A stretch of DNA of 64,000 nucleotides from Candidatus Kaiserbacteria bacterium (GCA_028286585.1 JAQBRI010000007.1:18479-82478); one strand, 5' to 3'. Positions 1,227 through 62,199 are shown, numbered from the stretch's first letter. The notes: a model not told the origin generated them from the letters alone. A program made the numbers and translations.

Positions 1227-1244
1227 TATAAACCTGATCACTGT

Positions 1245-2531: not shown

Positions 2532-2544
2532 TACAGTTCTCGAT

Positions 2545-2868: not shown

Positions 2869-2871
2869 ATA

Positions 2872-3339: not shown

Positions 3340-3373
3340 GGCCTAACCATACACAATATGCTACGATTGCGCT

Positions 3374-3778
3374 ATGAGAGGCGATATTTGGCCGGATTTG
3401 ATTGTTTTTGCCCCGCTCGCGGTCGCATTATTGCGAGCTGCTGCGGGAATTGCTTTTATCTATATCGCATACACCATGAGTGAGCGTGACACAGCTTTTA
3501 CAAAAGTTGCTTTCCCACTGATCGGAAAACCAGACCGATCGCTCGTTTGGCTTTCTGCATTTATTACTGCGGTTGTCGGCTTTGCGCTGTTTGTCGGATT
3601 CCTCACACAAATAATGGCACTTCTTGGCTTGTGCATCGCGATCAAACATCTCTTTTTTGCAAATAGATATCCATACCTCTTCCCCCTTTCACGCAGCTCG
3701 TATGCACTCCTTATAATCATTACTATCGCACTCTTTATTTGCGGAACTGGCACTCTCGCATTTGATTTGATGTTCTAA
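3374..3778 (+). CDS. polytopic membrane protein, unknown function
   Basis: 134 aa, about 4 predicted TM helices. Confidence 0.4.
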   Translation: MRGDIWPDLIVFAPLAVALLRAAAGIAFIYIAYTMSERDTAFTKVAFPLIGKPDRSLVWLSAFITAVVGFALFVGFLTQIMALLGLCIAIKHLFFANRYPYLFPLSRSSYALLIIITIALFICGTGTLAFDLMF

Positions 3779-21134: not shown

Positions 21135-21370
21135 ATAATTTAATTTATTTTTAAAAAAGAGTATTACTACTATATGTGGGGATATGGTGATAAGTACATA
21201 ATTCACTTCCCTGCTTGGATGGTTTGAGAAGTTCAGTTGGGGATAGCGGTGTGTATAAGCACATACTAAGTCGATTTTTTAATAAGTGAAAAAATATTTC
21301 TCTTGATTACCTAAGTTATAAACATGGAATTCAGTAGTCATACTCATCTTATACATACGCTATCCACAGG
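21135..21370. promoter_or_regulatory. dnaA-dnaN intergenic region with DnaA-box-like 9-mers (candidate oriC segment)
   Basis: CTATCCACA at about 21358, TGTGTATAA (reverse complement of TTATACACA) at about 21266, TGTGGGGATA at about 21185, AT-rich stretch near 21135-21165. Confidence 0.5.
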
Positions 21371-22732: not shown

Positions 22733-22854
22733 TTATACGCACTTTAGAATATAAAACCAACCTTTCGGATCGTAATCAAATCTGTGCATATCGTGTGGAT
22801 AGCTACCAGCCTGCCCTGCTTGATATATTTGATTTTTGAGATATAGTGCTTGGT
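22733..22854. promoter_or_regulatory. dnaA promoter/upstream region with DnaA box TGTGGATAG
   Basis: TGTGGATAG (reverse complement CTATCCACA) at about 22786-22794. Confidence 0.45.
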
Positions 22855-22995
22855 ATGAAGCGAACCTATCAACCAAAGAAACAAAAGCGAGCGAAGGCTC
22901 ACGGTTTTATAGCTCGATCTGCAACTGTTGGAGGTCGCGCAATGATCGCCCGACGTCGTGCAAAGGGCCGATCAAAACTCTCGGCGTCTGTATAA
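22855..22995 (+). CDS. rpmH: 50S ribosomal protein L34
   Basis: Hand translation [46 protein letters not shown]; not in the ORF track because under 60 aa. Confidence 0.85.
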
Positions 22996-23324
22996 TGACT
23001 CAGAAGTCACGCATGACACGTGCCGATATCGAGCGAGTACTCAAAAGCAAGACTCGCCGCGTGCGTACAGCGTTATTTTCTGCGATATTTTGCCCATCCG
23101 TTGATGGCGCCCCTACGCAATACGCGACTGTTGTATCAAAGAAAATAGCTCGTCATGCAGTTGACCGCAATCGTATTAAACGCCGAATGCGGGCAGCATT
23201 ACAACACGTTTCTCCCCCAGTCCACTCCTATTTTATTGTTCTATATCCCCTAAAGACAGTGGCTACGGTACCGCATGATGTACTAATGAACGAAGTCCAG
23301 TCATTTTTACAGACTCTCTCGTGA
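22994..23324 (+). CDS. rnpA: ribonuclease P protein component
   Basis: [29 protein letters not shown]...; overlaps rpmH stop (ATGA); classic rpmH-rnpA-yidC-jag order. Confidence 0.8.
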
Positions 23325-30574: not shown

Positions 30575-31174
30575 TTAGACCGGCTGTTCGCGATACGGGT
30601 CTCCTACAACATCTTTTCGTTCGTGACTCGCAGTATTCGTGTAGTTGGGATGTGCATCACTTCGTACGGCTTGCGTTACCGGTGCTTCTGGAATCGGCGC
30701 AAGCGGTGCAGGTTTTACAAATGGCACAACAACTGGCTGTGGAGCGGTGGTTTGTATTGACAGCATGTCAGATGGAGCGTTTTTAGGGTTATCTGATGAG
30801 AGTGAGGACTCGAGTTCGGTGCGAATTGGCTCAAAAACAATGCGAGAAATGTCCGCGGCCAATAAAACTGCAGCCTCATGATCCATTTTGACCTCGCGTT
30901 CAATGTTTGCTGCGAGGTTTTCTGGCTTATCAAGCCCTAAAAGGGTCATCATTACCTCGTTTTCCAAAAGTTCCCACTGATCGAGATGCAGTTTGTGCGT
31001 CTTTGAAAGATCCCGTAGATGAGCCTCAATATCCGCCGATGTTATAGCATCTTGCACGACTTGGGGTAATGCAGCTATTCGGGCATCAAGTTCTTGTTGT
31101 AATGTGTCTTGTTCCATATGTTTAAGTTCCATCTTCCTTTGGAGGAGTATATCTTCGTCCAGAAGCTTGAGCAC
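30575..31174 (-). CDS. acidic cytoplasmic protein, unknown function (T4SS-like operon)
   Basis: Glu/Asp/Leu-rich helical N-half, Pro-rich C-terminus; no TM. Confidence 0.4.
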   Translation of the reverse strand: MLKLLDEDILLQRKMELKHMEQDTLQQELDARIAALPQVVQDAITSADIEAHLRDLSKTHKLHLDQWELLENEVMMTLLGLDKPENLAANIEREVKMDHEAAVLLAADISRIVFEPIRTELESSLSSDNPKNAPSDMLSIQTTAPQPVVVPFVKPAPLAPIPEAPVTQAVRSDAHPNYTNTASHERKDVVGDPYREQPV

Positions 31175-47305: not shown

Positions 47306-48172
47306 TCACATTATTTGCTGAAGCAACTCAACATCAGTCTTATGGTTGCCTCGTATGCTGCTTATGCTGCCGTCGAGAAACGTGCCAGGCAAAAGCCATA
47401 TCCCTATTCCTCCCAAGAAGTCCAATAGGCGATGTCTGGCAAGCTCTTCCAACACTTTGCCCGGATTTTTCTCACTTTGTGCCCATAGCACTCCATTATA
47501 ATGGGGCCAATGCAGTCCGCGGAGAATCGGTCGAAGCCAGTTTGGCTGACCCAGAGGACGCGATCGCATTATGTCGATCAATATCCTCTGGCTCAAAACA
47601 TCACTCCAGACATGAGTTCCCCATTGAGAATATTCAAGCTCAATAGTAAATCCGCAGATATCACCCGGCTGCGTACAAATTGAAACAATCCGTTTCTTTG
47701 TAGGATCAGGCGAAAAGTCTCCGTATTGTGTAAATGATTGCACAGCACCTTTCCATCGCTGTGATGCGGGAGAAAGATAGCCGTCTGGGATCAACTGATC
47801 GGCAATTGCTTCCCAGAACATTTTCGTGCATCCATCATAAGGAAGCCAGTGCGTGTTTGAATATATCCGTACTGAATCAAGCCCAATGAACCGCAAAGGA
47901 AAAAGATGCTCCACGACATGCATCTCATGTATGCCGCTCTTAAGAAAGAGGTGATGATGCCCGTACCGCAACAAATCGACGGTAATAGCGATGTCTTTCC
48001 CGTCAATATTCCAAAACCATCCCGGCTTGTCTGTAGGCTCTAGTATGATTTGCGCTTGACGCCCGAACACATCACGCCCGCGCATGGTTACAGAGTTTCT
48101 GAGACGATATTTCTGCACGACGGCCCCCCTACCTATAAGAGATAAAGATCGCAACTGTGAAGATCTAATCAC
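47306..48172 (-). CDS. LpxC-family (UDP-3-O-acyl-GlcNAc deacetylase-like) protein
   Basis: HEMHVVEHLFPLRFIGLDSVRIYSNTHWLPYDGCTKMFWEAI aligns with the LpxC core (VEHL..L.G.D...I......P..DG....F); C-terminal LARHRLLDFLGGI...GNHKTDVELLQQI matches the RHK.LD.iGDL...GHaln..LL motif. Confidence 0.6.
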   Translation of the reverse strand: MIRSSQLRSLSLIGRGAVVQKYRLRNSVTMRGRDVFGRQAQIILEPTDKPGWFWNIDGKDIAITVDLLRYGHHHLFLKSGIHEMHVVEHLFPLRFIGLDSVRIYSNTHWLPYDGCTKMFWEAIADQLIPDGYLSPASQRWKGAVQSFTQYGDFSPDPTKKRIVSICTQPGDICGFTIELEYSQWGTHVWSDVLSQRILIDIMRSRPLGQPNWLRPILRGLHWPHYNGVLWAQSEKNPGKVLEELARHRLLDFLGGIGIWLLPGTFLDGSISSIRGNHKTDVELLQQIM

Positions 48173-50029: not shown

Positions 50030-50941
50030 GTGTGTATGGCGGATTTGAAAGCAATGAAACAGCAGTTTTTGGAATACATAGAGATCGAAAAAGGCCGCAG
50101 TGTAAAGACGGTCGAGAATTACGACCGCTACCTCACGCGCTTTTTAGACCATACCAAGGTAAAGACCGCCGAAAACGTGACGGAATCAATGGTTCGCGAA
50201 TTTCGTTTGTGGCTTAATCGCCAACCGGGCGTGTCTGGCGACATGAAACGCAAGACCCAAAACTACTACATGATTGCGCTCCGCGCTTTTCTCAAATACA
50301 TGCGTCGCAATAATGTTAAGTCACTCGATCCAGAGCGAATCGAGCTTGCAAAGGTTGGAGCACGAGACTTGGACTTGATTACCGCAGCAGAGCTTGATCG
50401 TCTACTTAATGGTCCCAATGGAACCACGACACAATCATTGCGCGATAAGGCAATACTCGAGCTATTTTTTTCAACTGGGCTTCGCGTGTCTGAACTTTGT
50501 TCTCTTAGTCGTGATCTCGACCTTTCGCGTGACGAGTTTTCGGTGCGCGGCAAGGGCGACAAGGTGCGCGTAGTCTTTCTCTCCTCCTCTGCAAAAGATG
50601 CCATACGAGCATACGAAAAAAAACGCACCGACCTCAGTGACGCCCTTTTTGTGAATGTCAGTAAAATAAATGCGACCAACAAGAACGATAGACTCACCTC
50701 CCGCAGTATTGAGCGCATTGTAAAAGGCTATGCCGTCAAGGCTGGTATCACCCGTAAGGTCACTCCCCACGTGATTCGCCACTCATTTGCCACAGACCTG
50801 CTCGAAAATGGCGCCGATTTGCGTAGCGTGCAGGCACTCCTTGGTCACGCCAATATTGCCACAACGCAGGTCTATACCCATGTGACCGACAAACACCTTC
50901 GCGAAGTCCACCAAAAATTCCACGGCAAACGCCGCGCTTAA
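50030..50941 (+). CDS. tyrosine site-specific recombinase, XerC/XerD type
   Basis: N-terminal core-binding domain, catalytic R...HxxR...Y (HVIRHSFATDLLENGADLRSVQALLGHANIATTQVYTHV). Confidence 0.85.
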   Translation: MCMADLKAMKQQFLEYIEIEKGRSVKTVENYDRYLTRFLDHTKVKTAENVTESMVREFRLWLNRQPGVSGDMKRKTQNYYMIALRAFLKYMRRNNVKSLDPERIELAKVGARDLDLITAAELDRLLNGPNGTTTQSLRDKAILELFFSTGLRVSELCSLSRDLDLSRDEFSVRGKGDKVRVVFLSSSAKDAIRAYEKKRTDLSDALFVNVSKINATNKNDRLTSRSIERIVKGYAVKAGITRKVTPHVIRHSFATDLLENGADLRSVQALLGHANIATTQVYTHVTDKHLREVHQKFHGKRRA

Positions 50942-51001
50942 ACAAAACTGCGCCATATATATTGGCGCAGTGAAAACTAACAATATCTAATTTTTTTGAT
51001 T

Positions 51002-51499
51002 CTATTCATCTTCTCCAATTTTCCATATTTTGGAATCGAAGTCGAAAAAATCCACTACATCTGTAATTTCGAGGTGACCCCTGATCTCGCCTCCGTCAGG
51101 AAAATGCTCGCCAGTGAGAAGAAATACAACGTAACAAGGGTCTTCGTTATACTCTTGGATATACATTTTCCAATTTGAAAGCAGGTCATCAAACCCGGCT
51201 TCCAAATACATGTCATGAAATTTGCTATCCGCTTCCTTCATATGCTCGAGAAACATTTGATATTGGTCGACTGTTAGAAGTGTCAGGTTCTTCCAGCCCA
51301 TCGATTGATAATCATTTAGTTGCAATATCACCTGTTTCCGTTTCAACAGCCCCCAACTCTTTTTTTCTGTAGTCAGTATGAATTGGAAATCGATACCTGT
51401 ATCGTCTTGAACTATGGCCTCAAGGTCAATCACGGTTTCGTCTTTTAATTTTATTCCCTCGGGAAGTTTGAATAAATGAGTTACTTCACGTTTAGACAT
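51002..51499 (-). CDS. acidic cytoplasmic protein, unknown function
   Basis: 165 aa, no TM, no recognisable motif. Confidence 0.4.
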   Translation of the reverse strand: MSKREVTHLFKLPEGIKLKDETVIDLEAIVQDDTGIDFQFILTTEKKSWGLLKRKQVILQLNDYQSMGWKNLTLLTVDQYQMFLEHMKEADSKFHDMYLEAGFDDLLSNWKMYIQEYNEDPCYVVFLLTGEHFPDGGEIRGHLEITDVVDFFDFDSKIWKIGEDE

Positions 51500-51564
51500 T
51501 TTTCTCTCCTTTAGTTAAAGAGGTGCTGCATATAAATAGACTATGTGCAGTGCATAAAAGAATG

Positions 51565-51918
51565 TCACTCGGACGCTCTCTTTGCTACATCCTTAGGATG
51601 CATCCGAAATGCATAGCGCGTCGCAAATCGAAGATCGCTAAGTAAGCAGTTAATCTCAGGGTGTCTATCATATGGATAAGTTTTAACGATGTTACGTACA
51701 AGAGTATCGAGATTATAGTCTTGCGGCAGCTGATCAATAAGCCAACCTTCGGATGTTGTGATCAAAGAATCATCATCTAATGTAACTGTGGCAACCAGGT
51801 TTCCTAACTCGCCCTCACTATCGATATATTCAACTAATTCAGCAAAGATTTCTGGAGTTACTTCTGCCCCAGACAAGATAACACCCATTGCCGCCGCTAC
51901 ATTCAGGTCGATTTTCAT
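51565..51918 (-). CDS. small protein, unknown function
   Basis: 117 aa ORF, no recognisable motif. Confidence 0.4.
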   Translation of the reverse strand: MKIDLNVAAAMGVILSGAEVTPEIFAELVEYIDSEGELGNLVATVTLDDDSLITTSEGWLIDQLPQDYNLDTLVRNIVKTYPYDRHPEINCLLSDLRFATRYAFRMHPKDVAKRASE

Positions 51919-51965
51919 GGCTCGCTCCTTTATTTACTACGGTAATTATACCCCAAAATATAGTA

Positions 51966-52053
51966 TTGTCAATAATATTAATGACAAAAATACGGGCATA
52001 TTTGTCTTTATTTATGGTTTGTTATACAATATTGTCATAAATAAATATGACAA
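51966..52053. promoter_or_regulatory. two TTGTCA-N10-TGACAA palindromes (51966-51987 and 52032-52053); the second overlaps the ATG of the TrmB-like gene
   Basis: Exact 6-bp half-sites in inverted orientation with identical 10-bp spacing, both AT-rich spacers. Confidence 0.55.
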
Positions 52054-52802
52054 ACCACATTGACCAGTCTTTGCTTCTCCGTCTCTCTGAAGTGGGCCTG
52101 AACGACAATGATTCAAAAGTATATATATACCTTTTACAGCTTGGCCAAATAATTGGAGGTTCGAAAATTGCCTTGCAATTGGGCATGCATCGACAATATA
52201 TCCATACTTCATTACAGAAACTCATAAAACTTGAATTAGTCGAAGAAATACCTTCTGGTGCTCGGAATAAGTATCGCGCGCTACCACCAGCCCATTTGGA
52301 GCGTCTTGCAAAGTCACATTTACATAATATTCAACGCGTAGTTCGTGAATTAAATGCAATTTCAGCAATAGGAGCAGAACAGGACTTCGAAATATACCGT
52401 GGCATCAATCAAGTTGTAGAATTTGAGGAAGAATTAGTGCATTCCCTGCCACCAAATACTGAACAATATATTATCGGAGGAGGATCTAAGGCCTTTATCA
52501 CTTTTTTTGGAGATAGGTTTGAAGAAATTACCGGCGATGCTGCTACCAAGGGTTTAAAAACAATGTACGTGGGTGCTCCTGATGAATTACCTTGGCTTGA
52601 AAGGGCGCAAAAAGCAAATAAACTTTTTGAATATAAAATTATAGAAACCATGCCTACTACAATTGTTCAGATGGTTATTCGACTCGACAGCGTAACCTTT
52701 TGTAGCTACGCAACCCCGCCGCTTGTGTATGTTGTGAAATCGAAAGCAGTATACGAGGACTATAGAAAGTTTTTCGATATGCTTTGGAATATGGCGATGT
52801 AG
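52047..52802 (+). CDS. TrmB-family winged-helix transcriptional regulator (paralog 1)
   Basis: N-terminal wHTH LSEVGLNDNDSKVYIYLLQLGQIIGGSKIALQLGMHRQYIHTSLQKLIKLELV; about 250 aa with C-terminal sensor-like domain. Confidence 0.6.
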   Translation: MTNHIDQSLLLRLSEVGLNDNDSKVYIYLLQLGQIIGGSKIALQLGMHRQYIHTSLQKLIKLELVEEIPSGARNKYRALPPAHLERLAKSHLHNIQRVVRELNAISAIGAEQDFEIYRGINQVVEFEEELVHSLPPNTEQYIIGGGSKAFITFFGDRFEEITGDAATKGLKTMYVGAPDELPWLERAQKANKLFEYKIIETMPTTIVQMVIRLDSVTFCSYATPPLVYVVKSKAVYEDYRKFFDMLWNMAM

Positions 52803-53570
52803 CTATTTCGCGGTTGATTGTACGTAATTAAATATTTGTTTCATCGCATAAGCGATTGTTTCGTCTTCGATAATGAGTGCCACTGGATTTTCTTGCGAGT
52901 AAGAAAGAATACTCACTTTGTGATCATAGATGCAGATTTCTGTATTGAAATTATATTCAGCCGGAATAAACGAGGCAACTCTCCCCTTCTTTGCATCATC
53001 TTTGGTTGCCTCTATCGCCTTTTGTGTTGCTGGCACGATATATTCGGCTTTGATACTGCGCTTGTTGCGCTGATCAATAAAATAATCCATCCATGTTTGT
53101 GTCATCGACGTCACTGCCCCCTCAAGACCAGTAAGAGCGTAGATCATTTTTTCGTTGTTGTGTTCGAGCATGTCTTCGTACGCCTGCTCGACTCCGCTTA
53201 TGCCTTCAAAAAATTGCACTTTGGGCAGTACTTTGCCTTTGTTGCGCATAAGAAGTAGTTGAGGAATGACGCCCTCGAGGTCTTTTTTGCTCGACAAGAG
53301 TTCATCGCGCTTGCGCTCGACGTACCCAGGTAACATCTCGGGTGCAATAGATTGGTAGCGGGTAGCACTTTCGTTTTTATTTACGGAAGAAACAAGACCT
53401 TTTCCCGAAAGTTCCTTGAGTAAGCCATAGGTGGTGGTGCGATTGAGCTTTGCTATTTTTGATACATTTGTGGCCAGCATTGGTCCGTTTTGAAGCAATA
53501 CCAAAAGTACTGCTACCTCTTTGTCTGCCAAACCGATATTTATCAGGGCTCTTTTGATTGCTGGAGGCAT
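52803..53570 (-). CDS. TrmB-family winged-helix transcriptional regulator (paralog 2)
   Basis: INIGLADKEVAVLLVLLQNGPMLATNVSKIAKLNRTTTYGLLKELSGKGLV. Confidence 0.6.
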   Translation of the reverse strand: MPPAIKRALINIGLADKEVAVLLVLLQNGPMLATNVSKIAKLNRTTTYGLLKELSGKGLVSSVNKNESATRYQSIAPEMLPGYVERKRDELLSSKKDLEGVIPQLLLMRNKGKVLPKVQFFEGISGVEQAYEDMLEHNNEKMIYALTGLEGAVTSMTQTWMDYFIDQRNKRSIKAEYIVPATQKAIEATKDDAKKGRVASFIPAEYNFNTEICIYDHKVSILSYSQENPVALIIEDETIAYAMKQIFNYVQSTAK

Positions 53571-53714
53571 GTGTGTAACAGTATATTGTTGTCTAAAATT
53601 GTCAACATTTCATTATATTTTGATTGAAATTTAGTTTAAATTAAGGTTAAATATTGTCAGAACAACCGAACAGACGTTCGGAACATTGGACTGCCCTAAG
53701 GAGGGGCTTAGATT

Positions 53715-54146
53715 ATGAACGATCAAGTAATCGCTCCCGAAACGTACGACTCGTTTCGGAATACGACGAAGATGGCGACAGTTGTCTATTCTTCTGGCAC
53801 GAAGCCCGGGTCGCCCATAGTGGCGCTACATCAGCATGTTATTGATGCTGTCGTAGATGTATTTGAATTTCCAAAGGATAAAGAATACCCACATGATTGT
53901 GGGGCGGTTGACTTAAAGGGGCATATCTTCTATTGGCAAATCCTCAAACGCTCAGAAGACCCTGAAAATTCAAACGGTCGGCACTGGTGCCTGTATAGTA
54001 GCACTGACCTGTTTCGCTATCGCAAAAAGGTAGGGATTGGGCAAAATCCTACCCCAGAAGCCGAAGCAATGTTCGAAACACATGTGCTGGTGATCTGGAC
54101 TCCTGGCACCTTCGACCCTTCTTACATGATTCACCCGCAGCCATAG
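53715..54146 (+). CDS. hypothetical protein
   Basis: 143 aa ORF between regulator paralogs. Confidence 0.35.
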   Translation: MNDQVIAPETYDSFRNTTKMATVVYSSGTKPGSPIVALHQHVIDAVVDVFEFPKDKEYPHDCGAVDLKGHIFYWQILKRSEDPENSNGRHWCLYSSTDLFRYRKKVGIGQNPTPEAEAMFETHVLVIWTPGTFDPSYMIHPQP

Positions 54147-54158
54147 CTGCGGGTTTTC

Positions 54159-54935
54159 TTATTTCGCGACGTTCCACAGTACTTCGAACAGTGCACGTTG
54201 ACTTACAACTGCTGCTTCGTTTCGCACACGCACAGTTACGACCTCGGGCTCATAAAAGTTAAAACTGACACTGTTGGGGCGAATTGCGATGTTTACGATA
54301 TTTCCAATACCCGGAATAAGCCTTGATTCATTGGTTATTACGCTCTCTTCCCTATTGTGTCGCACATCTTCCCCGCTTCCGATGTATCGGAGTGTTATTT
54401 CCTTTTGTTTACGCAGATCTTCCCATTGGTGTATCCGATCGCCCATTAGCATAACAAAGTTCATGCCGGCACCTCCTACAATGTCTAAAAACTCCCCTAC
54501 CCGTGCTTCTTGTAGCAGCTTAAATTCATCAGCAATTACAGCATATTCTCCTCGTATAACCTCCACAATTCCTGCAGGAGAACGGTCATAGAGTTTCATA
54601 AGATGTGTAACTCCGTCTATAGCGTCCATACGTGCCTTTTCTGCTTCTTGCAAAAGTTTGTCGGGGCTTGTCGCGTGGTATTTGACCTTTCTCCCCTCCC
54701 CGACCACTTGTACAAGTCGCCTTTCTTGCATCTCGTGGAGCGCGTCGTACACGTATTGTCTGTGGAGCTTGGTGCGCATCACGATCACCTTTGGATTGAG
54801 TGGAATCCCCGCTTCAAGCATGACAACATATACCGCTGCTGCCTTTGCAGAAAGCCCTGCTTTAAGCGCAGAACGCAAATAAAAGTTCTCACCCGATTCT
54901 TTTTTATTAGTCATAATTATATGACTATCATACAA
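54159..54935 (-). CDS. TrmB-family winged-helix transcriptional regulator (paralog 3)
   Basis: LKAGLSAKAAAVYVVMLEAGIPLNPKVIVMRTKLHRQYVYDALHEMQERRLV. Confidence 0.6.
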   Translation of the reverse strand: MYDSHIIMTNKKESGENFYLRSALKAGLSAKAAAVYVVMLEAGIPLNPKVIVMRTKLHRQYVYDALHEMQERRLVQVVGEGRKVKYHATSPDKLLQEAEKARMDAIDGVTHLMKLYDRSPAGIVEVIRGEYAVIADEFKLLQEARVGEFLDIVGGAGMNFVMLMGDRIHQWEDLRKQKEITLRYIGSGEDVRHNREESVITNESRLIPGIGNIVNIAIRPNSVSFNFYEPEVVTVRVRNEAAVVSQRALFEVLWNVAK

Positions 54936-54999
54936 AATATAGCCATATATGCAAGTATATTAGTCGTATAAAGATTGAAATAAAAACTATGACTATGTA

Positions 55000-55028
55000 T
55001 TGACATGCGCTTCTTTTAGAGATATAAT
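55000..55028 (+). promoter_or_regulatory. consensus sigma70-type promoter TTGACA-17-TATAAT for the gene starting at 55076
   Basis: Exact hexamers with 17-bp spacer. Confidence 0.6.
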
Positions 55029-55075
55029 ATGTGCAGATTGGTCATTGAGACTTGTCATAGACAGAGGGGTTACTA

Positions 55076-55789
55076 ATGAGCGAATTCAACAAAGACTGGT
55101 TCATCATTTACTCAAAAAAGAGAAATGTTGTACCTCTCAAAACGATCGAAGAGGCCAGAGCCGCCCACCAAGATGCGCCACGCGGTTCAGAGCAAGAGTT
55201 GCTCGCGCTGTCTAAATGGGCCGGACTCTCTTTCCAGGCAGCAAAAAAGGCTAAAAATGCAAAAGAGGCCGAGGAGGCCTGCAAAGCTGCACCTGATAAA
55301 ACTCAGGCTTATTGCCTTGCGCGGGATAAGTGGGATGAATTTTCGATTGTTGACGCAAGGAAGGCAAAAACCCCTATGCAGCTGAGGCGAGTAATCATAC
55401 AAGCTCGGCACGGCTCAAAGGCTATTGATATTGCCTTGAGTCGATGGGAGGAGTTGGCGCTTTTAATGGCCCAAAAGGCATCAGACATTGAAAAATGCGT
55501 GGCTGCTATAGAAGCCTCACCGTCCACTACTTGGTACTCTTCAAAGGCGAGCTCCCTGGCAATAAGCAAGCGGAATGCCTTTTTGCAAATAGAGCTCGAC
55601 AAGGCTATGACATATGAAGAAGTTTCCCGGGTCTTCATCATGTGCAGCGACATGAACTTAAAAGGAACTGATATTTATAAACATGCTGGAATGCGTGTGA
55701 ACCAGTTTTACAATAAGCTTCATCGTCGTAAACAAATTGATGTCGAAAGTGAAGATGTACACTGCTCAAATGGATCAGTATATTACTAA
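55076..55789 (+). CDS. hypothetical helical protein
   Basis: 237 aa, Lys/Ala/Glu-rich, no recognisable motif. Confidence 0.4.
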   Translation: MSEFNKDWFIIYSKKRNVVPLKTIEEARAAHQDAPRGSEQELLALSKWAGLSFQAAKKAKNAKEAEEACKAAPDKTQAYCLARDKWDEFSIVDARKAKTPMQLRRVIIQARHGSKAIDIALSRWEELALLMAQKASDIEKCVAAIEASPSTTWYSSKASSLAISKRNAFLQIELDKAMTYEEVSRVFIMCSDMNLKGTDIYKHAGMRVNQFYNKLHRRKQIDVESEDVHCSNGSVYY

Positions 55790-55920
55790 AAATGACAGCG
55801 GATCGAGAGATCCGCTGTTTTCTCTATATCTTTCACGTGTAACAGGAATTGAGGTGTTATTCGTTGCTAAGTAACTAAATACATACACCTTTTAGGTTAA
55901 ATTATCTAAAATTATATAAA

Positions 55921-55994
55921 GTGTGCCACGTGTAACCTAAAAAGTGTAAGTATTTGGGATACTATCTTACTTTTATCGGTTACACGTGGCACAT
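55921..55994. repeat. 16-bp inverted pair TGTGCCACGTGTAACC ... GGTTACACGTGGCACA (GTTACACGTGGCAC motif) between convergent genes
   Basis: Exact reverse-complement copies about 42 bp apart with partially complementary spacer. Confidence 0.65.
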
Positions 55995-56085
55995 GTTGCC
56001 AAAGGCTTGCTTATGGTCCGAGATAGCGCGCTGGATATCTAACTTGGATCTGCTTTCTGCAAATTCCAACCTAAACCTACCTTTT

Positions 56086-56523
56086 TTAACGCGAGGGTCG
56101 ATCTTTGAAGATTCGTCGCACAAGAAGTGCCGTTGGAAGTAGTGCAAGGAATTCAAAGATTATCCACGGACTTGCAAAGAACGGTAGAAAGTCAGGATTG
56201 AAGGTTTCGAAGGGAAGTGTCATGCATCCATAGGAGAATGAAAATGGAATGAGGGAGAACCAGTAAAAGCACGCTCGCATAAAGAAGTCATCGTCTTCTG
56301 ACTTTGATTTTATCTCCGTCTCATACATCAGCGAAGCTAGGAAAAACCCTCCGCCCCACAGCGAACAAAAGCCAACTGCGAGCGGAACAGTACCGTCATG
56401 CCGTGGCCATGCTCCGGCTCCGGCGATGCTGCCAATGTACACAAAGATAAGAGAAATAGTAACTGAAAGAATGACGAATATTGCTCTGCTCATTTGCATG
56501 ACATAATCTCCTGTTTTGAACAA
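56086..56523 (-). CDS. small polytopic membrane protein, unknown function
   Basis: About 4 TM helices. Confidence 0.4.
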   Translation of the reverse strand: MFKTGDYVMQMSRAIFVILSVTISLIFVYIGSIAGAGAWPRHDGTVPLAVGFCSLWGGGFFLASLMYETEIKSKSEDDDFFMRACFYWFSLIPFSFSYGCMTLPFETFNPDFLPFFASPWIIFEFLALLPTALLVRRIFKDRPSR

Positions 56524-56623
56524 CCCGAGTCATTTTACGCGTATTCTACTGTCGTGCGAGTAAAGGAAAAGCCGATTTTTACTCCCCAAAATACTCAATA
56601 AAATAAAGATATACACAGTATTT

Positions 56624-56655
56624 TATATGTCCAAAAAGTGGACATATAGTATAAT
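56624..56655. promoter_or_regulatory. palindrome TATATGTCCA-N5-TGGACATATA overlapping a TATAAT -10 element upstream of TrmB-like paralog 4
   Basis: 10-bp perfect arms; TATAAT at 56650-56655; ATG at 56662. Confidence 0.55.
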
Positions 56656-56661
56656 GCAACA

Positions 56662-57435
56662 ATGTGGACTGAGTCGCAGCGATTGTTTTTAAATCTGAGT
56701 AAAAAGGAGCTTGCGGTGCTTAAAATTTTGCATAAAAAGGGTCCGATTAATACCACTGAACTCGCCTTTGAATCTAAGATTCCACGCGTCACAACGATAC
56801 GTATTGCGCGCAAATTATGGCGCAGGGGATTCATTGCTCGGCAGACTTTGAGGCGCGAAATAAAGTGGTCCGAAGTCGATCGTGAGACCATTCAAAAGCG
56901 TCTTATGACCCAGGTTGAAACATCAACCGTAACCCTCGGCGGCAAAGAAATTGAACTCTCGGAAGTTGCCAGTGTGACAACGTATTATGGGGCGGATGCC
57001 ATGCTCGAGAGTAACAAAAAGCTGCTTGTGGCGCATGCGGGCGAAAAGTTTTGCAGCATTGAACCAAATGGCATGTGGAAACATATGGCAAAAGTGTCCC
57101 CAAAGGAGTGGCAAGAACTCAATAATATCTATAAAAATAAGGGTGTAATGGTAGATATGGTGCTCGAAGAGGGGTTTGAAAAGGCGATAGGGATAGTAGA
57201 CAAAGAACTAAAATCAAGCTTTTTTAGTCTCGCGTCAGAGGTGCGTGTAATTCCCGAGGGAATTGTAAGTTCTTCGACCGAAGTACTTATATTTCGAGAT
57301 CAGGCGCTCTTTATGGATTGGGAGCAGTACATAGCAATAGAAATAAAGAATCCAAGCACCGTAAAGCTGATAAAAGGCATGTTCAAGGCTTTGCAGGCGC
57401 AAGGCACGGTATTTGGCTACAAGAAAGGGTTTTGA
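56662..57435 (+). CDS. TrmB-family winged-helix transcriptional regulator (paralog 4)
   Basis: LSKKELAVLKILHKKGPINTTELAFESKIPRVTTIRIARKLWRRGFIARQ. Confidence 0.5.
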   Translation: MWTESQRLFLNLSKKELAVLKILHKKGPINTTELAFESKIPRVTTIRIARKLWRRGFIARQTLRREIKWSEVDRETIQKRLMTQVETSTVTLGGKEIELSEVASVTTYYGADAMLESNKKLLVAHAGEKFCSIEPNGMWKHMAKVSPKEWQELNNIYKNKGVMVDMVLEEGFEKAIGIVDKELKSSFFSLASEVRVIPEGIVSSSTEVLIFRDQALFMDWEQYIAIEIKNPSTVKLIKGMFKALQAQGTVFGYKKGF

Positions 57436-57437
57436 GT

Positions 57438-57451
57438 GTTACACGTGGCAC
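57438..57451 (+). promoter_or_regulatory. third exact copy of GTTACACGTGGCAC, between TrmB-like paralog 4 and xth
   Basis: Identical 14-mer to 55979-55992; degenerate copies at about 55836, 57742, 58190 and 58364. Confidence 0.5.
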
Positions 57452-57470
57452 CTGGTGCTATACTTGGCAC

Positions 57471-58271
57471 ATGAGAATAATGTCATGGAACGTGAATGGT
57501 ATTAGAGCGGTACACAAGAAGGGCTTATTTGAGCCATTTATTGCCAAGTACCAGCCAGATGTTCTGTGTCTACAGGAAACCAAGGCACAGGAGCACGAAT
57601 CTCCTGTCGATTTGCCCGATTATCATGAGTTTTGGAATAGTGCTGAGAAGAAAGGGTATAGCGGTACAGCGATATTTAGTAAAGAAAAGCCCTTGTCCGT
57701 TATATTAGGCATTCCAGCCGTTATTATCGAAAAACATGGTGTTACACGTGACACATACGGAGACCCTGGCACCGAGGGCAGGGTTATAGCGGCTGAATAT
57801 AAGGATTTTTACGTGGTTACGGTATATACCCCCAACTCCAAGGATGACCTAACCCGCATTCCGTTGCGTCATAAGCAGTGGGACCCTGCCTTTTTGGCAT
57901 ACTGTGTGGAACTTGAAAAAACCAAGCCAGTCATATTTTGTGGGGACCTTAACGTTGCACATACCCCCGACGACTTGGCGAACCCTAAGCCAAATATGGG
58001 CAAAAAGGGTTTCACCAATGAGGAGCGAGAGGGAATTGATAACGCTCTGGGCTATGGCTTTGTTGATACCTTTAGGCATTTTATCCCTTCTGGTAATGGT
58101 TATTACACCTGGTGGAGTAATTTTGCCAATTCACGTGCCAGAAATATTGGGTGGAGAATCGATTATGTTTTTGTAAGCAAATCCCTTGTTCCACGTGTAA
58201 CTAGCGCCGCTATTCACCCCGAAGTAATGGGCTCGGATCATTGTCCTGTATCAATCGACATTTCTGACTGA
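57471..58271 (+). CDS. xth: exodeoxyribonuclease III (AP endonuclease, Xth family)
   Basis: MRIMSWNVNGIRA..., CLQETK, catalytic D...N...H motifs (DHCPVSIDI C-terminus); start set at the internal Met. Confidence 0.85.
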   Translation: MRIMSWNVNGIRAVHKKGLFEPFIAKYQPDVLCLQETKAQEHESPVDLPDYHEFWNSAEKKGYSGTAIFSKEKPLSVILGIPAVIIEKHGVTRDTYGDPGTEGRVIAAEYKDFYVVTVYTPNSKDDLTRIPLRHKQWDPAFLAYCVELEKTKPVIFCGDLNVAHTPDDLANPKPNMGKKGFTNEEREGIDNALGYGFVDTFRHFIPSGNGYYTWWSNFANSRARNIGWRIDYVFVSKSLVPRVTSAAIHPEVMGSDHCPVSIDISD

Positions 58272-58369
58272 TACCACAGAACCTCTATTTATAAGGACAA
58301 ATTAAGTGTCCATTAACGACCAATTAGTTATCCACAGTATTGTCCATTAAGTCCTTTACACGTATTACT

Positions 58370-58436
58370 ATGTCCGTTACACTGTCTTTTAGTTGCTCAT
58401 TCAGGAAACGTTAGTTCAAACTAACGGGACATAGTT
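58370..58436. repeat. nested inverted repeats (CTATGTCCGTTA...TAACGGGACATAG enclosing CGTTAGTT-caa-ACTAACG) in a 455-bp noncoding stretch
   Basis: 12-bp outer and 7-8-bp inner complementary arms. Confidence 0.5.
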
Positions 58437-58726
58437 TTACATGTACCTTACACAAAACATATATAGCACTTAGTGCTCAGGATATCCTCGACGATATCCA
58501 TTGAAATACAAGGTACTTGTGCTAAACACCCGAGATCTTTAATAATGATCTAACGGAATCCTATTTAAAGCCGCTTCACTGCGGCGACTGCTGAAAAAGA
58601 AAACACAGAAGTCGCCCCGTGAGGCGGTTTTTTTATACTATCTAAAATACACATGTAGTAAAAATTGCCTCTTAGCATAACTACGGTATAATCAGCTCAC
58701 TTCGATCCGTGTTCGAAGTGACATCT

Positions 58727-58797
58727 GCGGGCATGGTTTAGTGGTAAAATGGCGCCTTGCCAAGGCGTAGACGGGAGTTCGATTCTCCCTGCCCGCA
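58727..58797 (+). tRNA. tRNA-Gly (anticodon GCC), no encoded CCA
   Basis: GCGGGCA acceptor, anticodon loop TTGCCAA, T-arm GGGAGTTCGATTCTCCC. Confidence 0.8.
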
Positions 58798-58859
58798 CAC
58801 AAAGTTTGTTTTTAGGTTTCGCCAGGATTCTCCCCAGAATCTCGGCCCACTTCATTATG

Positions 58860-58931
58860 TGCTCCCGCCAGGATTCGAACCTGGAATAGCAGTTCCGAAG
58901 ACTGCTGTGATATCCATTTCACCACGAGAGC
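58860..58931 (-). tRNA. tRNA-Arg (anticodon TCG), no encoded CCA
   Basis: Reverse complement: acceptor GCTCTCG/CGGGAGC, D-stem GTGA/TCAC, anticodon stem GCAGT/ACTGC with loop CTTCGGA, T-arm CCAGGTTCGAATCCTGG. Confidence 0.7.
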
Positions 58932-60501: not shown

Positions 60502-60764
60502 TGGGCGTCTGCGCCTATCGTTATTGATTTCACTACGTCGAACATCGAAATTATGTTTGTTTGTTTGATAACAAACACCTGCTGTCCTATATAGGTTTTT
60601 ACAAAGACAGTGAATGGTCGTCTGTGAATAAATTATTGAAACTGTGTATAACTCTGTGGATATGTTGATAACAGACAAGGGCTTCAAGTTTGATATATGT
60701 CCAATATTTAAGGTATTTATGCGGTTTTGTCCAATCAGGCATGTTTGTATGAGATACTGTCCCT

Positions 60765-61203: not shown

Positions 61204-62199
61204 TTAAAAAAGCAGTTCTGCAATTTGCACAGCATTGAGCGCCGCGCCCTTAAGAATATTGTCGCCCGAAACAAACATTTCGAGAGTGTAGAGATCTCGC
61301 TGCCGGATCCTGCCTACGAACACCTCGTCTTTGCCAGTCGCAAGAAGAGGAAGCGGATATAATCCCTTATCTGGTTCGTCATAAACTATAACTCCGGGTG
61401 ATCGAACAAGTGTATCGCACATTTTTTTGAAAATGTGATCATGGATCTTGTTTTGGAACTCGACAACAATGTTCATGCTGTGTCCGTTCATGATCGGCAC
61501 CCGGACACATGTTGCGTATACGGGGATCTTCCGCCCAAGAATTTTTTGAGTTTCATAGAGCATTTTCAGCTCTTCGGAAGAATGTTCATTATCCACGAAC
61601 GAGCCGATCGCAGGGATCACATTTCCAAAAATCGGATGCGGATAGATTTCCCGTTCAAACAAGCTTCCCTGCAAGATGGCACGCTGCTGCGCTTCGAGCT
61701 CGCGTATGCCATCGGTGCCCGAACCAGATACCGCCTGCAGTGTAGTTACATATACTTTTGCGATTGGATTGATTCGATGCAGAGGCGCAAGCGCCATCAA
61801 CATGATAATCGTACTGCAATTAGGGCTTGCAATAAGGCCACAGTGCCCTTTAAGTGCCTTCGGGTTGACCTCGGGGATGATGAGCGGCACGTCCGGGTCC
61901 ATACGAAAATCCGAACCATTGTCGATAACAATGCATCCTCGACGCACTGCTTCCTTGGCAAATTCTTTCGATGCACCAGCTTCGCCTTCGGTGCCGGCGA
62001 AAAATGCAAACTTAGCACCGTCGAATCCCTCTGGTCGGGCGACCTCGACAGCATATATTTCGTCATCGATAACCATGCGTCTCTCGGTTCTGGCGAGGAT
62101 GGTTATTTCTTCGATAGCGAAGCGAGGCCTTTTACGCAATATTTCGACCATCTCCGTACCAACCATACCGGCACCAACTACGACAATTCGCGTTCCCAT
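61204..62199 (-). CDS. asd: aspartate-semialdehyde dehydrogenase
   Basis: IVVVGAGMVGTEM Rossmann motif, active-site IASPNCST, 331 aa. Confidence 0.85.
   Translation of the reverse strand: MGTRIVVVGAGMVGTEMVEILRKRPRFAIEEITILARTERRMVIDDEIYAVEVARPEGFDGAKFAFFAGTEGEAGASKEFAKEAVRRGCIVIDNGSDFRMDPDVPLIIPEVNPKALKGHCGLIASPNCSTIIMLMALAPLHRINPIAKVYVTTLQAVSGSGTDGIRELEAQQRAILQGSLFEREIYPHPIFGNVIPAIGSFVDNEHSSEELKMLYETQKILGRKIPVYATCVRVPIMNGHSMNIVVEFQNKIHDHIFKKMCDTLVRSPGVIVYDEPDKGLYPLPLLATGKDEVFVGRIRQRDLYTLEMFVSGDNILKGAALNAVQIAELLF

Follow-up and report, generated by a model that had tools for sequence, protein, structure and literature searches.

The 6.5-kb interval between the recombinase gene xer and the exonuclease III gene xth is rather likely to be a chromosomal hypervariable locus between two core genes, made up of four divergent regulator–orphan modules with autoregulated repressors. 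It lies in a 64-kb stretch of DNA (the window) from a genome of Candidatus Kaiserbacteria (Patescibacteria/CPR). In the proposed mechanism each regulator would bind its own palindrome as a dimer, the bound regulator would shut down its own gene together with its neighbour's strong promoter, and the orphans would stay silent until a signal or a changed regulator level releases them. That the adjacent regulator represses the cargo is our inference from the geometry of the modules and the conservation of the palindromes; the arrangement may thus represent autoregulated repressors gating fast-turnover genes.

The segment runs from Xer through two acidic orphans (o165 and o117, pI 4.57 and 4.47), four TrmB-type proteins (T1–T4) with three more orphans, and Xth to a spacer and a tRNA-Gly/tRNA-Arg pair (Table 1). 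Regulators and orphans are paired back to back and divergently, as (o165, o117) with T1, T2 with o143, T3 with o237, and m135 with T4. All genes listed in the original prediction were found in place: the Xer-type tyrosine recombinase (which gave full-length matches to XerD, XerC and XerA), the two acidic orphans, the four paralogues of about 250 aa (all above the Pfam TrmB gathering cutoff of 25.6 bits), and the tRNA pair with its 455-bp structured spacer. It had also counted four interleaved ORFs as unknown; this holds for three (53715–54146, 55076–55789 and 56086–56493), whereas the fourth (57471–58271) is exonuclease III, a housekeeping gene.

Table 1. Positions of the features in the window (strand "." where none applies).
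Feature	Position	Strand	Basis
Xer-type tyrosine recombinase; left anchor, outside the variable locus	50030–50941	+	Phage_integrase and SAM-like N-domain
Hairpin terminator between convergent Xer and o165	50947–50971	.	Terminator scan, sequence
Module 1 cargo, co-oriented: o165 (51002–51499), o117 (51565–51918)	51002–51918	−	Acidic orphans
Module 1 control region	51945–52053	.	Promoter scan, repeats, sequence
T1, TrmB/TrmBL2-like regulator	52047–52802	+	Pfam TrmB 40.1 bits
T2, TrmBL2-like regulator, stable resident near Xer	52803–53570	−	Pfam TrmB 43.6 bits
T2 operator-like palindrome, TGTTG-N11-CAACA	53587–53607	.	At T2 promoter
Module 2 cargo: o143 (ORF 53715–54146) and terminator (54133–54154)	53715–54154	+	Shine-Dalgarno AGGAGG, terminator scan
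T3, TrmB-like regulator, likely start 54914	54159–54935	−	Pfam TrmB 27.0 bits
Module 3 control region	54908–55028	.	Promoter scan, conservation in relative L084
Module 3 cargo: o237 (ORF 55076–55789) and terminator (55794–55819)	55076–55819	+	Terminator scan
Array of 16-bp palindrome TGTnnCACGTGnnACA, 7 sites (55829, 55922, 55979, 57438, 57457, 57741, 58187)	55829–58201	.	
Module 4 cargo: m135, small hydrophobic orphan, likely start 56493	56086–56523	−	ORF call
T4 palindrome, ATATGTCCA-N5-TGGACATAT (palindrome 56625–56647)	56625–56655	.	Inverted repeat, sequence
T4, TrmB/MarR-like regulator	56662–57435	+	Pfam MarR 34.4, TrmB 27.8 bits
Exonuclease III (Xth); core gene, right anchor	57471–58271	+	Pfam Exo_endo_phos 126.4 bits
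Candidate small RNA gene	58326–58640	+	Promoter scan, folding, conservation
tRNA-Gly(GCC), own promoter 58665–58692 (promoter scan)	58727–58798	+	ARAGORN, Rfam
tRNA-Arg(TCG)	58859–58931	−	ARAGORN, Rfam

Xer (303 aa; Pfam Phage_integrase 149.9 bits, plus a SAM-like N-domain) aligned end to end with the XerD, XerC and XerA models, scored above the XerA cutoff, and has the catalytic residues R-K-HxxR-H-Y legible in its sequence. It shares length, domain layout, catalytic residues and housekeeping synteny with chromosomal XerC/XerD and archaeal XerA, but it scores below both the XerC and the XerD equivalog cutoffs and is the single Xer copy within the window. The genes xer and xth are co-oriented neighbours in many Paceibacteria, the S15-Xer-Xth order is conserved throughout the class, and the order S15-Xer-Xth-CCA was repeated in 31 related genomes. 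Identity of Xth was 60–75% across 80 related genomes, and that of Xer to its orthologue in L084 was 96.7%. A dif site, the target of Xer in chromosome-dimer resolution, was searched for near Xer and not found; none is expected there, as the window places dnaA and oriC some 28 kb away. Xer is a core gene and not an island integrase; judged from sequence and synteny, it is predicted to be the housekeeping chromosome-dimer resolvase. The right end (Xth, the promoter-to-terminator small-RNA unit, tRNA-Gly and tRNA-Arg) is likewise conserved backbone and not an island boundary; the tRNA pair also occurs in relatives and belongs to the conserved core features.

T1–T4 are the sole members of the TrmB-type family in the window. 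T1 and T3 shared 25% identity over the full length, and similarity between the other pairs was confined to the winged helix-turn-helix (HTH). Profile searches connected all four: a profile from T2 orthologues alone aligned T1 from end to end (E 1e-8), and the C-terminal similarity of T4 to the family was weak (domain E 0.2). T1–T4 are distant paralogues that did not arise by recent duplication. Orthologues were found for T1 in L019 (53% identity), for T2 in syntenic position in L082, L084, L087, L088 and L089 (66–80%), for T3 at the same position in L084 (86%), and for T4 next to Xth in L072 (50%) and L019. At 80 loci, TrmB-like genes were about threefold denser within 1.5 kb of Xth.

Structure prediction, a check proposed with the original prediction for the C-terminal (sensor) domains, covered T2 among the four regulators. 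In the AF2 model (pLDDT 90.6) a winged HTH is followed by a long helix and then by an alpha/beta domain that resembles NucT and PLD3 in structure searches, so that the regulator type, as modelled, is a winged HTH with a long putative dimerisation helix and a PLD-fold C-terminal domain; no HxK was present among the conserved columns of this domain. The best PDB match, over the full length (5BPD, E 2e-13), was TrmBL2 (TK0471/PF0496), which serves the archaeal Thermococcales as chromatin protein and global repressor (PDB 5BPD, 5BPI, 5BQT; PMC3031468, PMC4877046). Both are about 255–260 aa long and begin with a TrmB-type winged HTH; a long helix and, at the C-terminus, a PLD-like alpha/beta domain come next, and neither protein has the sugar-binding subdomain. 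Sequence identity, however, was 15–18%, differing domain orientations limited the Foldseek TM-score of the T2 model to about 0.4, the host is bacterial (CPR), and at least four divergent copies occur here, each with a specific palindrome at its own promoter. These palindromes point to putative site-specific regulators, unlike the sequence-unspecific, filament-forming chromatin protein. The sugar-sensing regulators TrmB/TrmBL1 (PDB 3QPH; PF01978 and PF11495) share the N-terminal PF01978 domain, which was above its gathering score in T1–T4, but T1–T4 are about 80 aa shorter, gave no Pfam match to the C-terminal sugar-binding domain, and scored 17–26 bits with the NCBIfam TrmB/TrmBL1 equivalogs, against cutoffs of 600–650. 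The database name 'sugar-specific regulator TrmB' is therefore unjustified.

Each regulator-specific palindrome lies over the promoter or the start codon of its own regulator; in some modules it also overlaps the −35 of the opposite promoter. A near-consensus promoter drives the orphan in the T1, T2 and T3 modules; in those of T1 and T3 it is a perfect sigma-70 consensus. The cargo promoter of module 1 (TTGACA-16-TATAAT, minus strand, 51972–51945) matched 12 of 12 positions in the promoter scan, and the T1 promoter lies at 52002–52030; of two copies of the palindrome TTGTCA-N10-TGACAA, that at 51966–51987 overlaps the cargo −35 and that at 52032–52053 the T1 start codon. A related GTCAAT...ATGACAAA site is found upstream of the T1 orthologue in L019. 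The T2 palindrome was unchanged in six orthologous upstream regions, despite saturation of the 4-fold sites between those genomes. The module 3 palindrome, TAGTCATA-ATTA-TATGACTA (54908–54927), lies across the start codon of T3, another half-site (CTATGACTATG) is at 54987–54997, and the cargo promoter (TTGACA-17-TATAAT, 55000–55028) again matched 12 of 12 positions; L084 retains the palindrome and the consensus promoter, and the ORFs downstream differ. The T4 palindrome abuts a −10 element (TATAAT, 56650–56655), and ATGTCCA...TGGACAT also occurs upstream of the T4 orthologue in L072.

A further palindrome forms the array listed in Table 1. With up to 3 mismatches, GTTACACGTGGCACA had 9 matches in the window versus 1.36 expected, 7 of them within 55829–58201; the recurring palindromes are real and lie above chance, and those of the regulators are kept in orthologous promoters elsewhere. 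The array includes a 72-bp inverted-repeat element (55922–55993) and a site covering the Xth promoter (57438–57452), and all its sites are kept in L084, including two inside Xth. The array palindrome was absent at Xth in L082 and L087–L089, and the motif of the CACGTG palindromes was not found at the own promoters of T1, T2, T3 or T4.

L084 is the closest relative, with core proteins about 96% identical. It shares Xer, T2 and T3 with their promoters, the 72-bp element, and Xth with the spacer; between these blocks the DNA could not be aligned. It lacks o165, o117, T1, o143, o237, m135 and T4, has no protein homologue of any orphan, and carries unrelated short ORFs in place of o237. The 4-fold sites are saturated between the window and L084 (33–54% identity), so the retained non-coding blocks are under selection, and the dissimilarity of the orphans fits replacement and unconstrained divergence alike. 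The regulators with their promoters and operator-like DNA are passed on vertically and maintained by selection; the orphans have been replaced or have diverged past recognition, even where core proteins are 96% identical. Among the 31 related genomes the Xer–Xth gap ranged from 4 bp to 6.8 kb. Chromosomal plasticity zones similarly have fixed flanks (here xer and xth), a content that varies among relatives and a slightly atypical composition; in contrast to them, the locus has no mobility genes and no repeats, and its single-gene slots are tied to a conserved, vertically inherited regulator and promoter.

Two other origins of the segment were weighed against a hypervariable chromosomal locus. 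If a mobile element or genomic island had integrated at tRNA-Gly/tRNA-Arg by means of the neighbouring tyrosine recombinase, and its mobility genes had since been lost, this would account for the differences in gene content between close relatives, for the atypical codon usage of the orphans and for the slightly lower GC at 51–53 kb; such elements do occur in the lineage, as L084 has a true integrase/excisionase/AAA_25 element beside tRNA-Pro. Such an origin is nevertheless quite unlikely. In the 31 genomes Xer keeps its synteny with S15 and Xth, in 12 of them at most 265 bp separate it from Xth, and the conserved Xth, RNA unit and both tRNAs separate the variable part from the supposed attachment site. 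The tRNA-derived direct repeats in the segment are all 11 nt or shorter, which disposes of the att-like repeats sought at the tRNA ends. Searches of phage and plasmid collections gave no DNA match to the 6.5 kb, PHROG gave no function beyond Xer's own integrase match, PHROG and PADLOC otherwise returned only generic HTH matches, and the regulator family was absent from IMG/VR viral contigs. The variable pieces, moreover, alternate with vertically inherited blocks and do not form a single insert. The Xer synteny and the lack of att repeats and of similarity to mobile elements, phages or plasmids largely refute a mobile-element remnant, half of what had been suggested in the original prediction. 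Its other half, a variable regulatory island, survives since the segment as a whole is not syntenic; only the recombinase is chromosomal by synteny, and no dif was found nearby. A local expansion of paralogues by recent tandem duplication would fit four family members in 6.5 kb and none in the remaining 57 kb of the window, but with pairwise identities of just 17–25%, a different palindrome for each regulator, and T1–T4 nearer to orthologues elsewhere (53%, 80%, 86%, 50%) than to each other, it is very improbable; the orthologue identities refute it.

Two further alternatives concern the orphans. They might be non-functional, the DNA between the regulators decaying or drifting and the ORFs accidental or pseudogenic, with only the regulators, Xth and the RNA of consequence. 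The only match of o165 among 1.84 billion representatives, and of o143 and o237 among 5.8 billion proteins, was the protein itself; single-sequence AF2 gave no confident fold for o165 (pLDDT 33.6); codon-usage z-scores were −2.7 to −3.7; and the DNA could not be aligned with L084. Against this, failure of AF2 on a single sequence says nothing, the gaps are filled by five non-overlapping ORFs of 117–237 codons, Shine-Dalgarno sequences were present for the four orphans examined (o165, o117, o143 and o237), and terminators follow o165, o143 and o237 in the terminator scan. The o117/o165 and o237 promoters are at full consensus, the latter kept in L084, and every relative examined refills the same slots with ORFs of 150–195 codons. 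With their Shine-Dalgarno sequences and terminators the orphans look like putative real genes, and their lack of function is improbable. The slot beside T2 holds unrelated ORFs in six genomes, those of the five relatives being mutually unrelated; an ORF located upstream of Xth in L011 shares 40% identity with the C-terminal half of o143. As to function, the cargo could consist of conflict genes (toxin/immunity, anti-phage/anti-defence or host-interaction effectors) under a dedicated repressor, which is compatible with the module anatomy of the hypervariable locus. The analogy is with Aca repressor/anti-CRISPR operons, a likeness in working only: a conserved HTH repressor, here a predicted autorepressor, at a strong promoter that would require tight repression, and small, unrelated, partly acidic proteins (pI about 4.5) varying among relatives. 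The locus differs in being chromosomal and outside a phage or mobile element, in its repressor family, and in divergent transcription instead of an operon. Moreover, o165 and o117 had no Pfam, NCBIfam, PHROG or PADLOC match, the cargo as a whole had none in PADLOC, Pfam or PHROG (m135 gave sub-threshold Pfam matches), and the segment showed neither CRISPR-Cas nor restriction genes; we give such a function a small chance.

In composition the segment deviates mildly, with a GC content of 0.38–0.40 at 51–53 kb versus about 0.45 elsewhere. In codon usage the orphans deviate no more than the core gene Xth (z-score −2.8), an observation that counts against the reading as a hypervariable locus.

The spacer (58272–58726) had a minimum free energy of −78.3 kcal/mol versus −46.2 ± 4.4 kcal/mol for shuffled sequences (z = −7.25), and its layout from promoter to terminator probably represents an unannotated small RNA; no Rfam family matched. 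A DnaA-box-like TTATCCACA (58328–58336) is followed by promoter elements from the scan (−35 TTTACA, 58355–58360; −10 TACACT, 58378–58383), by hairpins over about 245 nt and by a terminal hairpin with U-run (~58567–58640). The unit was 86.6% identical to L084 over 350 nt, compared with 33–54% at 4-fold sites; all stems were retained and the terminal hairpin was 100% identical. In 23 genomes and at least 120 metagenome contigs, the interval from Xth to CCA contains the same promoter element. The BoxA (NusB/NusE site) of rRNA leaders has the consensus GYTCTTTAANA (PMC5725501), and some 40 nt into the Xth-linked RNA the heptamer found most often was GTTCTTT (83 of 120 sequences; GCTCTTT in 23 more), following a 5' hairpin in one subgroup. 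In the window GATCTTTAATA (~58534–58544) fits 10 of the 11 consensus positions, but it lies inside a predicted hairpin, no rRNA follows the RNA, and the predicted transcript ends about 250 nt downstream. The orientation of tRNA-Gly is inverted in L084.

The segment derives from a metagenome-assembled genome of the Patescibacteria (CPR); T2, the second of its four TrmB-type regulators (T1–T4), is 100% identical to an NCBI entry named Candidatus Kaiserbacteria, and the database entries of the orphan genes bear JWO50 locus tags. The original prediction described the gene content accurately, except that one of its "four unknown ORFs" is exonuclease III (Xth). Overall, the data indicate a vertically anchored array on the chromosome, made of cassettes in which TrmBL2-like regulators are paired with orphan genes, followed by a conserved candidate small-RNA gene. 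It combines known kinds of components, i.e. TrmB-family regulators and chromosomal variable regions.

Genes of the segment and comparison with L084, the contig of the closest relative found (window positions).
Feature	Position	Strand	Remark
Xer, tyrosine recombinase	50030-50941	+	
o165, orphan	51002-51499	-	module 1, (o165, o117) divergent from T1
o117, orphan	51565-51918	-	module 1
T1, regulator	52047-52802	+	module 1
T2, regulator	52803-53570	-	module 2, divergent from o143
o143, orphan	53715-54146	+	module 2
T3, regulator	54159-54914/54935	-	module 3, divergent from o237; alternative starts
o237, orphan	55076-55789	+	module 3
m135, orphan	56086-56493/56523	-	module 4, divergent from T4; alternative starts
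T4, regulator	56662-57435	+	module 4
Xth, exonuclease III	57471-58271	+	
Spacer, 455 bp			after Xth
tRNA-Gly		+	after the spacer
tRNA-Arg		-	after the spacer
Conserved in L084	49060-50945		S15, FKBP, Xer
Conserved in L084	52830-53665		T2 and upstream DNA
Conserved in L084	54156-55030		T3 and upstream DNA
Conserved in L084	55922-55993		72-bp inverted-repeat element
Conserved in L084	57436-58632		Xth and most of the spacer
Conserved in L084			tRNAs, CCA, YraN
Unalignable with L084	50946-52829		o165, o117, T1
Unalignable with L084	53666-54155		o143
Unalignable with L084	55031-55921		o237
Unalignable with L084	55994-57435		m135, T4

T1–T4 are 251–258 residues long and belong to the TrmB family by their DNA-binding domain. 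All four score above the Pfam cutoff of 25.6 bits for this domain (PF01978; 40.1, 43.6, 27.0 and 27.8 bits for T1 to T4, respectively), and no other protein of this kind is encoded in the 64 kb. The sugar-sensing regulators TrmB and TrmBL1 differ from them in being about 340 residues long and in carrying the effector domain PF11495. This C-terminal sugar-binding domain was found in none of the regulators at E ≤ 0.01, and the scores against the NCBIfam TrmB and TrmBL1 equivalogs were 16.8 and 26.4 bits, far under the cutoffs of 600 and 650. A sugar-sensing identity was rejected on these grounds, and the database label "sugar-specific regulator TrmB" is misleading for these proteins.

For T2, AF2 modelling with 33 sequences (pLDDT 90.6) gave a winged HTH (residues 1–75), a 34-residue helix (77–110) and an alpha/beta domain (117–253). 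The eight top matches of the model in the PDB were TrmBL2 chains, with full-length alignments of 255–270 columns (E 2e-13 to 2e-11); taken by itself, the C-domain is similar to NucT, PLD3 and F13, which have the PLD fold. Judged by the model, T2 is of the TrmBL2-type architecture, in which about 260 residues form a winged HTH, one long coiled-coil helix and one PLD-like C-domain. A nuclease or phospholipase of the PLD superfamily needs the HxK(x)4D (HKD) motif, and the alignment of 33 sequences has no His-x-Lys in columns that are invariant or nearly so, which argues against this activity. TrmBL2 is an abundant chromatin protein and coats DNA at low sequence specificity, whereas T1–T4 have conserved palindromes of their own. 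The conservation of these palindromes at each regulator's own promoter argues for site-specific binding and not for TrmBL2-like coating; by all sequence signs, members of this archaeal-type family would act as site-specific autoregulators in these bacteria.

The four regulators are ancient paralogues with pairwise identities of 17–25%, each closer to orthologues in other genomes than to the other three. A profile made solely from T2 orthologues aligned with T1 over the full length, and was significant for T3 and T4 in the HTH, colinear but weak in the C-domain. In 80 related Patescibacteria loci, retrieved with Xth as an unbiased anchor, genes of the TrmB-like family are about three times as dense within 1.5 kb of Xth as at greater distances, and such genes therefore habitually reside in the xer-xth-CCA neighbourhood. 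Our literature search found no paper linking TrmB with CPR or Patescibacteria.

Word-indexed searches of 5.8 billion proteins with o237 and o143 retrieved only the queries themselves, and o165 likewise found only itself when 1.84 billion representatives were scanned exhaustively with HMMER. No match that would point to a function of the orphans was found in Pfam, NCBIfam, PHROGs or PADLOC, and a single-sequence AF2 model of o165 was unusable (pLDDT 33.6). Shine-Dalgarno sequences are present at o165, o117, o143 and o237, and terminators follow o165, o143 and o237.

L084, a JGI contig, was reached via its 79%-identical T2 orthologue. Protein identities between the window and L084 are 96% for PNPase, 98.5% for NYN, 96.7% for Xer, 90% for CCA and 88% for Xth. 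The nucleotide comparison gives a mosaic of conserved blocks and unalignable intervals, and none of the orphans has a protein homologue in L084. Among 31 genomes with both genes, the gap between Xer and Xth ranges from 4 bp to 6.8 kb; it is at most 265 bp in 12 of them, and nine gaps hold a single small ORF. The 6.5-kb gap of the window is comparable to the largest. The prediction of a variable regulatory island is borne out by this mosaic, by the orphans without homologue in L084 and by the range of gap sizes. Four-fold degenerate sites are 33–54% identical between the window and L084, i.e. saturated; the dissimilarity of the orphans could thus reflect either gene replacement or unconstrained divergence, and the saturation likewise implies that the retained non-coding blocks are under selection.

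The order S15-Xer-T2 was found again in L082, L087, L088 and L089; in these, a divergent ORF of 154–195 residues comes after T2, then Xth, and then one or two further TrmB-like genes before CCA. The ORFs in this slot next to T2 are mutually unrelated across all six genomes, the sole link being a 73-residue stretch common to o143 and an ORF of L011. The latter ORF (461–1120, upstream of Xth) has an N-terminal part similar to the slot ORF of L088 (9404–9868), which contains an RNA-polymerase alpha-CTD-like domain, and a C-terminal part related to o143. The sequences hint that slot genes may be assembled from shuffled pieces.

Every T gene is divergent from its orphan gene or genes, and each of the four intergenic regions carries a different palindrome. 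The T1 palindrome, TTGTCA-N10-TGACAA, is present in two copies, one overlapping a perfect TTGACA-16-TATAAT promoter of o117/o165 and the other the T1 start codon. That of T2, TGTTG-N11-CAACA, does not vary among six orthologous promoters. The T3 palindrome, TAGTCATA-ATTA-TATGACTA, covers the start codon of T3, and a further half-site adjoins a perfect TTGACA-17-TATAAT promoter of o237; palindrome and promoter are both kept in L084, where the ORFs downstream differ. The T4 palindrome, ATATGTCCA-N5-TGGACATAT, abuts a -10 element and is kept upstream of a 50%-identical orthologue in L072. From this anatomy and its conservation we infer binding and repression: each regulator would be a dimeric autorepressor, which would also gate the strong promoter of the neighbouring orphan. 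The starts of T2, T4 and Xth (53570, 56662 and 57471) lie 6–10 nt downstream of a -10-like hexamer and lack a Shine-Dalgarno sequence, which suggests leaderless mRNAs, in contrast to the orphans with their clear Shine-Dalgarno sequences.

Another palindrome of 16 bp, TGTnnCACGTGnnACA, occurs at seven sites in 55829–58201, whereas 1.36 would be expected in the entire window; the Xth promoter is covered by one site, and Xth itself contains two. All sites are kept in L084 and are absent from more distant relatives. A role of GTTACACGTG as class-wide operator was rejected, because it falls within the CCA coding region in other loci and the array is limited to the window/L084 clade. Between the convergent genes o237 and m135 lies the 72-bp element, in which a 42-nt core is flanked by TGTGCCACGTGTAAC and an inverted copy of it. 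Its conservation in L084 is 85%, with unalignable flanks; the element could serve as a pair of operators or encode a small hairpin RNA.

The segment had also been proposed to be the remnant of an integrated element, with Xer as its recombinase and the tRNAs as its end. The XerD, XerC and XerA models align with Xer end to end; the protein has a tyrosine-recombinase catalytic domain and a SAM-like N-domain in about 300 residues, and no arm-binding domain. The canonical catalytic residues R-K-HxxR-H/W-Y are present in its translation (GLRVSE, GKGDKVR, HVIRHS, LGHA, VYTH). The recurrent gene order in related loci is PNPase-NYN-S15-Xer(+)-Xth(+)-CCA-YraN; here Xer keeps its place between S15 and Xth, while the 6.5 kb between Xer and Xth varies. 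By its domains, residues and housekeeping position, Xer is a chromosomal Xer recombinase. The S15-Xer-Xth synteny in 31 genomes, together with the end-to-end alignments, rules it out as an island integrase. A tRNA-targeting integrative element or genomic island is contradicted by the lack of bounding repeats and by the fact that the syntenic Xer is the sole recombinase: the search for attachment repeats from four tRNAs gave no match of more than 11 nt in the segment (E ≥ 0.76 for this longest exact match). The 6.5 kb matched nothing in phage and plasmid DNA collections, the other nine genes of the segment have no PHROG function, and the regulator family is absent from IMG/VR viral contigs. Among the PADLOC defence models only the generic winged HTH of Csa3/CasR matched T2 and T4 (E 1e-5 to 1e-2), and the orphans matched none. 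The remnant reading was thus abandoned in favour of a vertically anchored chromosomal array. If none of the readings given here holds, the locus is an ordinary variable chromosomal region.

A dif site adjoining xer and an IMEX-type insertion, in which an element exploits Xer, were likewise rejected. Xer and Xth are only 4–27 bp apart in many relatives, which leaves no space for dif, and a scan with the simple pattern [AT]TAA-N6-TTA[AT] gave three matches in the window, none of them close to xer. The best match, ATAAAATTTAA-CTGCGG-TTAAATTTGAT at 32931–32958, has arms complementary at 10 of 11 positions; it sits within an 849-residue ORF (31122–33671) and is probably a chance match. dnaA and DnaA-box clusters are found at 21–23 kb; with dnaA and the probable oriC in the same window the terminus should be distant, and dif is not expected near xer. 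The dnaA gene (21371–22732, - strand) is followed by a 392-residue ORF (20028–21206, - strand), and nowhere in the window do DnaA-box-like 9-mers cluster more densely than at 21.0–21.5 and 22.5–23.0 kb, where the GC content falls to 0.38–0.39. The dnaA region (20028–23000) is probably oriC, about 28 kb from xer. Directly beside tRNA-Pro, L084 has an integrase gene, an HTH_17 excisionase-like gene and an AAA_25 gene (730–3396); in this sister genome, the set makes up a true integrative element of the tRNA-targeting type.

Within the spacer, the interval 58326–58640 reads as a candidate small-RNA gene. A promoter-like site (TTTACA-17-TACACT), preceded by a perfect DnaA-box sequence (TTATCCACA), is followed by about 245 nt of hairpins that close with a long hairpin and a U-run. 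The predicted fold has an energy of -78.3 kcal/mol (z = -7.25 versus shuffles). Identity with L084 is 86.6% over 350 nt, which exceeds that of adjacent coding DNA and is far above the saturated neutral level; all stems are retained and the 65-nt terminal hairpin is identical. In the window clade covariation is minimal (one compensatory pair, two sequences). In relatives at the same locus, compensatory pairs number 10 of 44 in one subgroup and 9 of 19 in a 15-member subgroup, in which the stems vary around the invariant loop ACCAU..UUACGCCCCUGCUCCUUUU; this covariation supports an RNA structure in relatives at the Xth-CCA locus. With its promoter, terminator, stability and conservation, and with clear covariation in relatives, the spacer has the properties expected of a gene for a putative structured small RNA.

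In 23 of the fetched genomes the promoter element GTTATCCACA-N-TGTCCTTTACA, in one orientation or the other, separates Xth from CCA, and it occurs as well in at least 120 metagenome contigs. Of the latter, Xth adjoins in 92 and CCA in 87; no contig with the element and enough flank lacked both genes. The commonest heptamer downstream of the element is GTTCTTT (83 of 120 sequences; background 0.117 per kb), which agrees with positions 1–7 of the consensus for BoxA, GYTCTTTAANA (PMC5725501). An rRNA gene, sought for comparison of its leader with the BoxA-like motif, was found in none of the loci examined. One subfamily of the Xth-linked RNA (L104, L106, L108, L117, L118, L124, L129, L133, L137, L144, L145, L152, L165, L176, L183, L197 and L088 6885–6983) shares a C-rich loop of about 30 nt, ACCAU..UUACGCCCCUGCUCCUUUU, which hardly varies and is closed by co-varying stems; this loop resembles an anti-Shine-Dalgarno sequence. 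A covariance model of the conserved-loop 3' domain detected L088, L066, L038 and L053 and missed the window, so that the RNA of the window and L084 would be a divergent member by position and promoter. An nhmmer search for the body of the window RNA found nothing beyond L084. Rfam covariance models gave no match in the spacer region (E ≤ 1), in the whole window (gathering score) or in 13 related loci. An identity as tmRNA, RNase P, SRP, 6S or 5S RNA was rejected, as there was no Rfam or ARAGORN match and no signature motif on inspection. The spacer is not oriC either: it has one perfect DnaA box (58328) and no cluster, and dnaA with its box-dense flanks lies about 35 kb to the left. A conserved small ORF within the RNA was rejected too, as its only candidate ATG is lost in L084.

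CPR bacteria (Patescibacteria) have tiny genomes with few recognisable regulators; to our knowledge, almost nothing is known of their gene control and their non-coding RNAs are largely uncharted. A linked interpretation, which we put forward tentatively and consider rather unlikely as a whole, is that a regulated orphan-gene nursery at xer-xth stands beside an undescribed, stable Xth-CCA RNA family that spans the class Paceibacteria. Vertically inherited TrmBL2-like repressors would keep promoters of consensus strength shut, and lineage-unique genes would continually be born or swapped behind them, a possible mechanism for the safe testing of new genes in a genome of less than 1 Mb. The RNA, with its putative DnaA-box-bearing promoter, BoxA-like GUUCUUU motif and, in many members, an invariant C-rich, anti-Shine-Dalgarno-like loop (ACGCCCCUGCUCCUUUU), could be a regulator, either translation-targeting or Nus-linked, with its synthesis coupled to the initiator of replication. 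The locus supplies four candidate cognate operators, amenable to testing, for an unstudied CPR regulator family. The conserved repressor/promoter cassettes and their relative-less genes make it a concrete site to study how orphan genes originate in reduced genomes and how they are kept harmless. If its transcription is confirmed, the spacer RNA would add a widespread, unannotated, class-wide RNA to the CPR.

Further differences were noted in the surroundings of the segment. A 288-residue ORF (47306–48172, - strand), the last 50 residues of which match the LpxC C-terminus (35 bits), has atypical codon usage (z = -2.8) and is wholly missing in L084, where about 30 bp separate PNPase from NYN. 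L084 also lacks the gene for aspartate-semialdehyde dehydrogenase, which in the window (61204–62199, - strand) is located between YraN and tRNA-Pro, and has the integrase set described above instead. tRNA-Gly(GCC) and its promoter are inverted between the window (58659–58814) and L084 (5874–6028, 88% identity), the CCA gene of most other relatives has the opposite orientation to that of the window, and small inversions are frequent around this tRNA cluster. The CCA-YraN intergenic region (60502–60764) contains four DnaA-box-like 9-mers within about 50 bp (60623–60671), with one mismatch each and in one orientation, and two TGTCCAAT boxes at 60696 and 60726.
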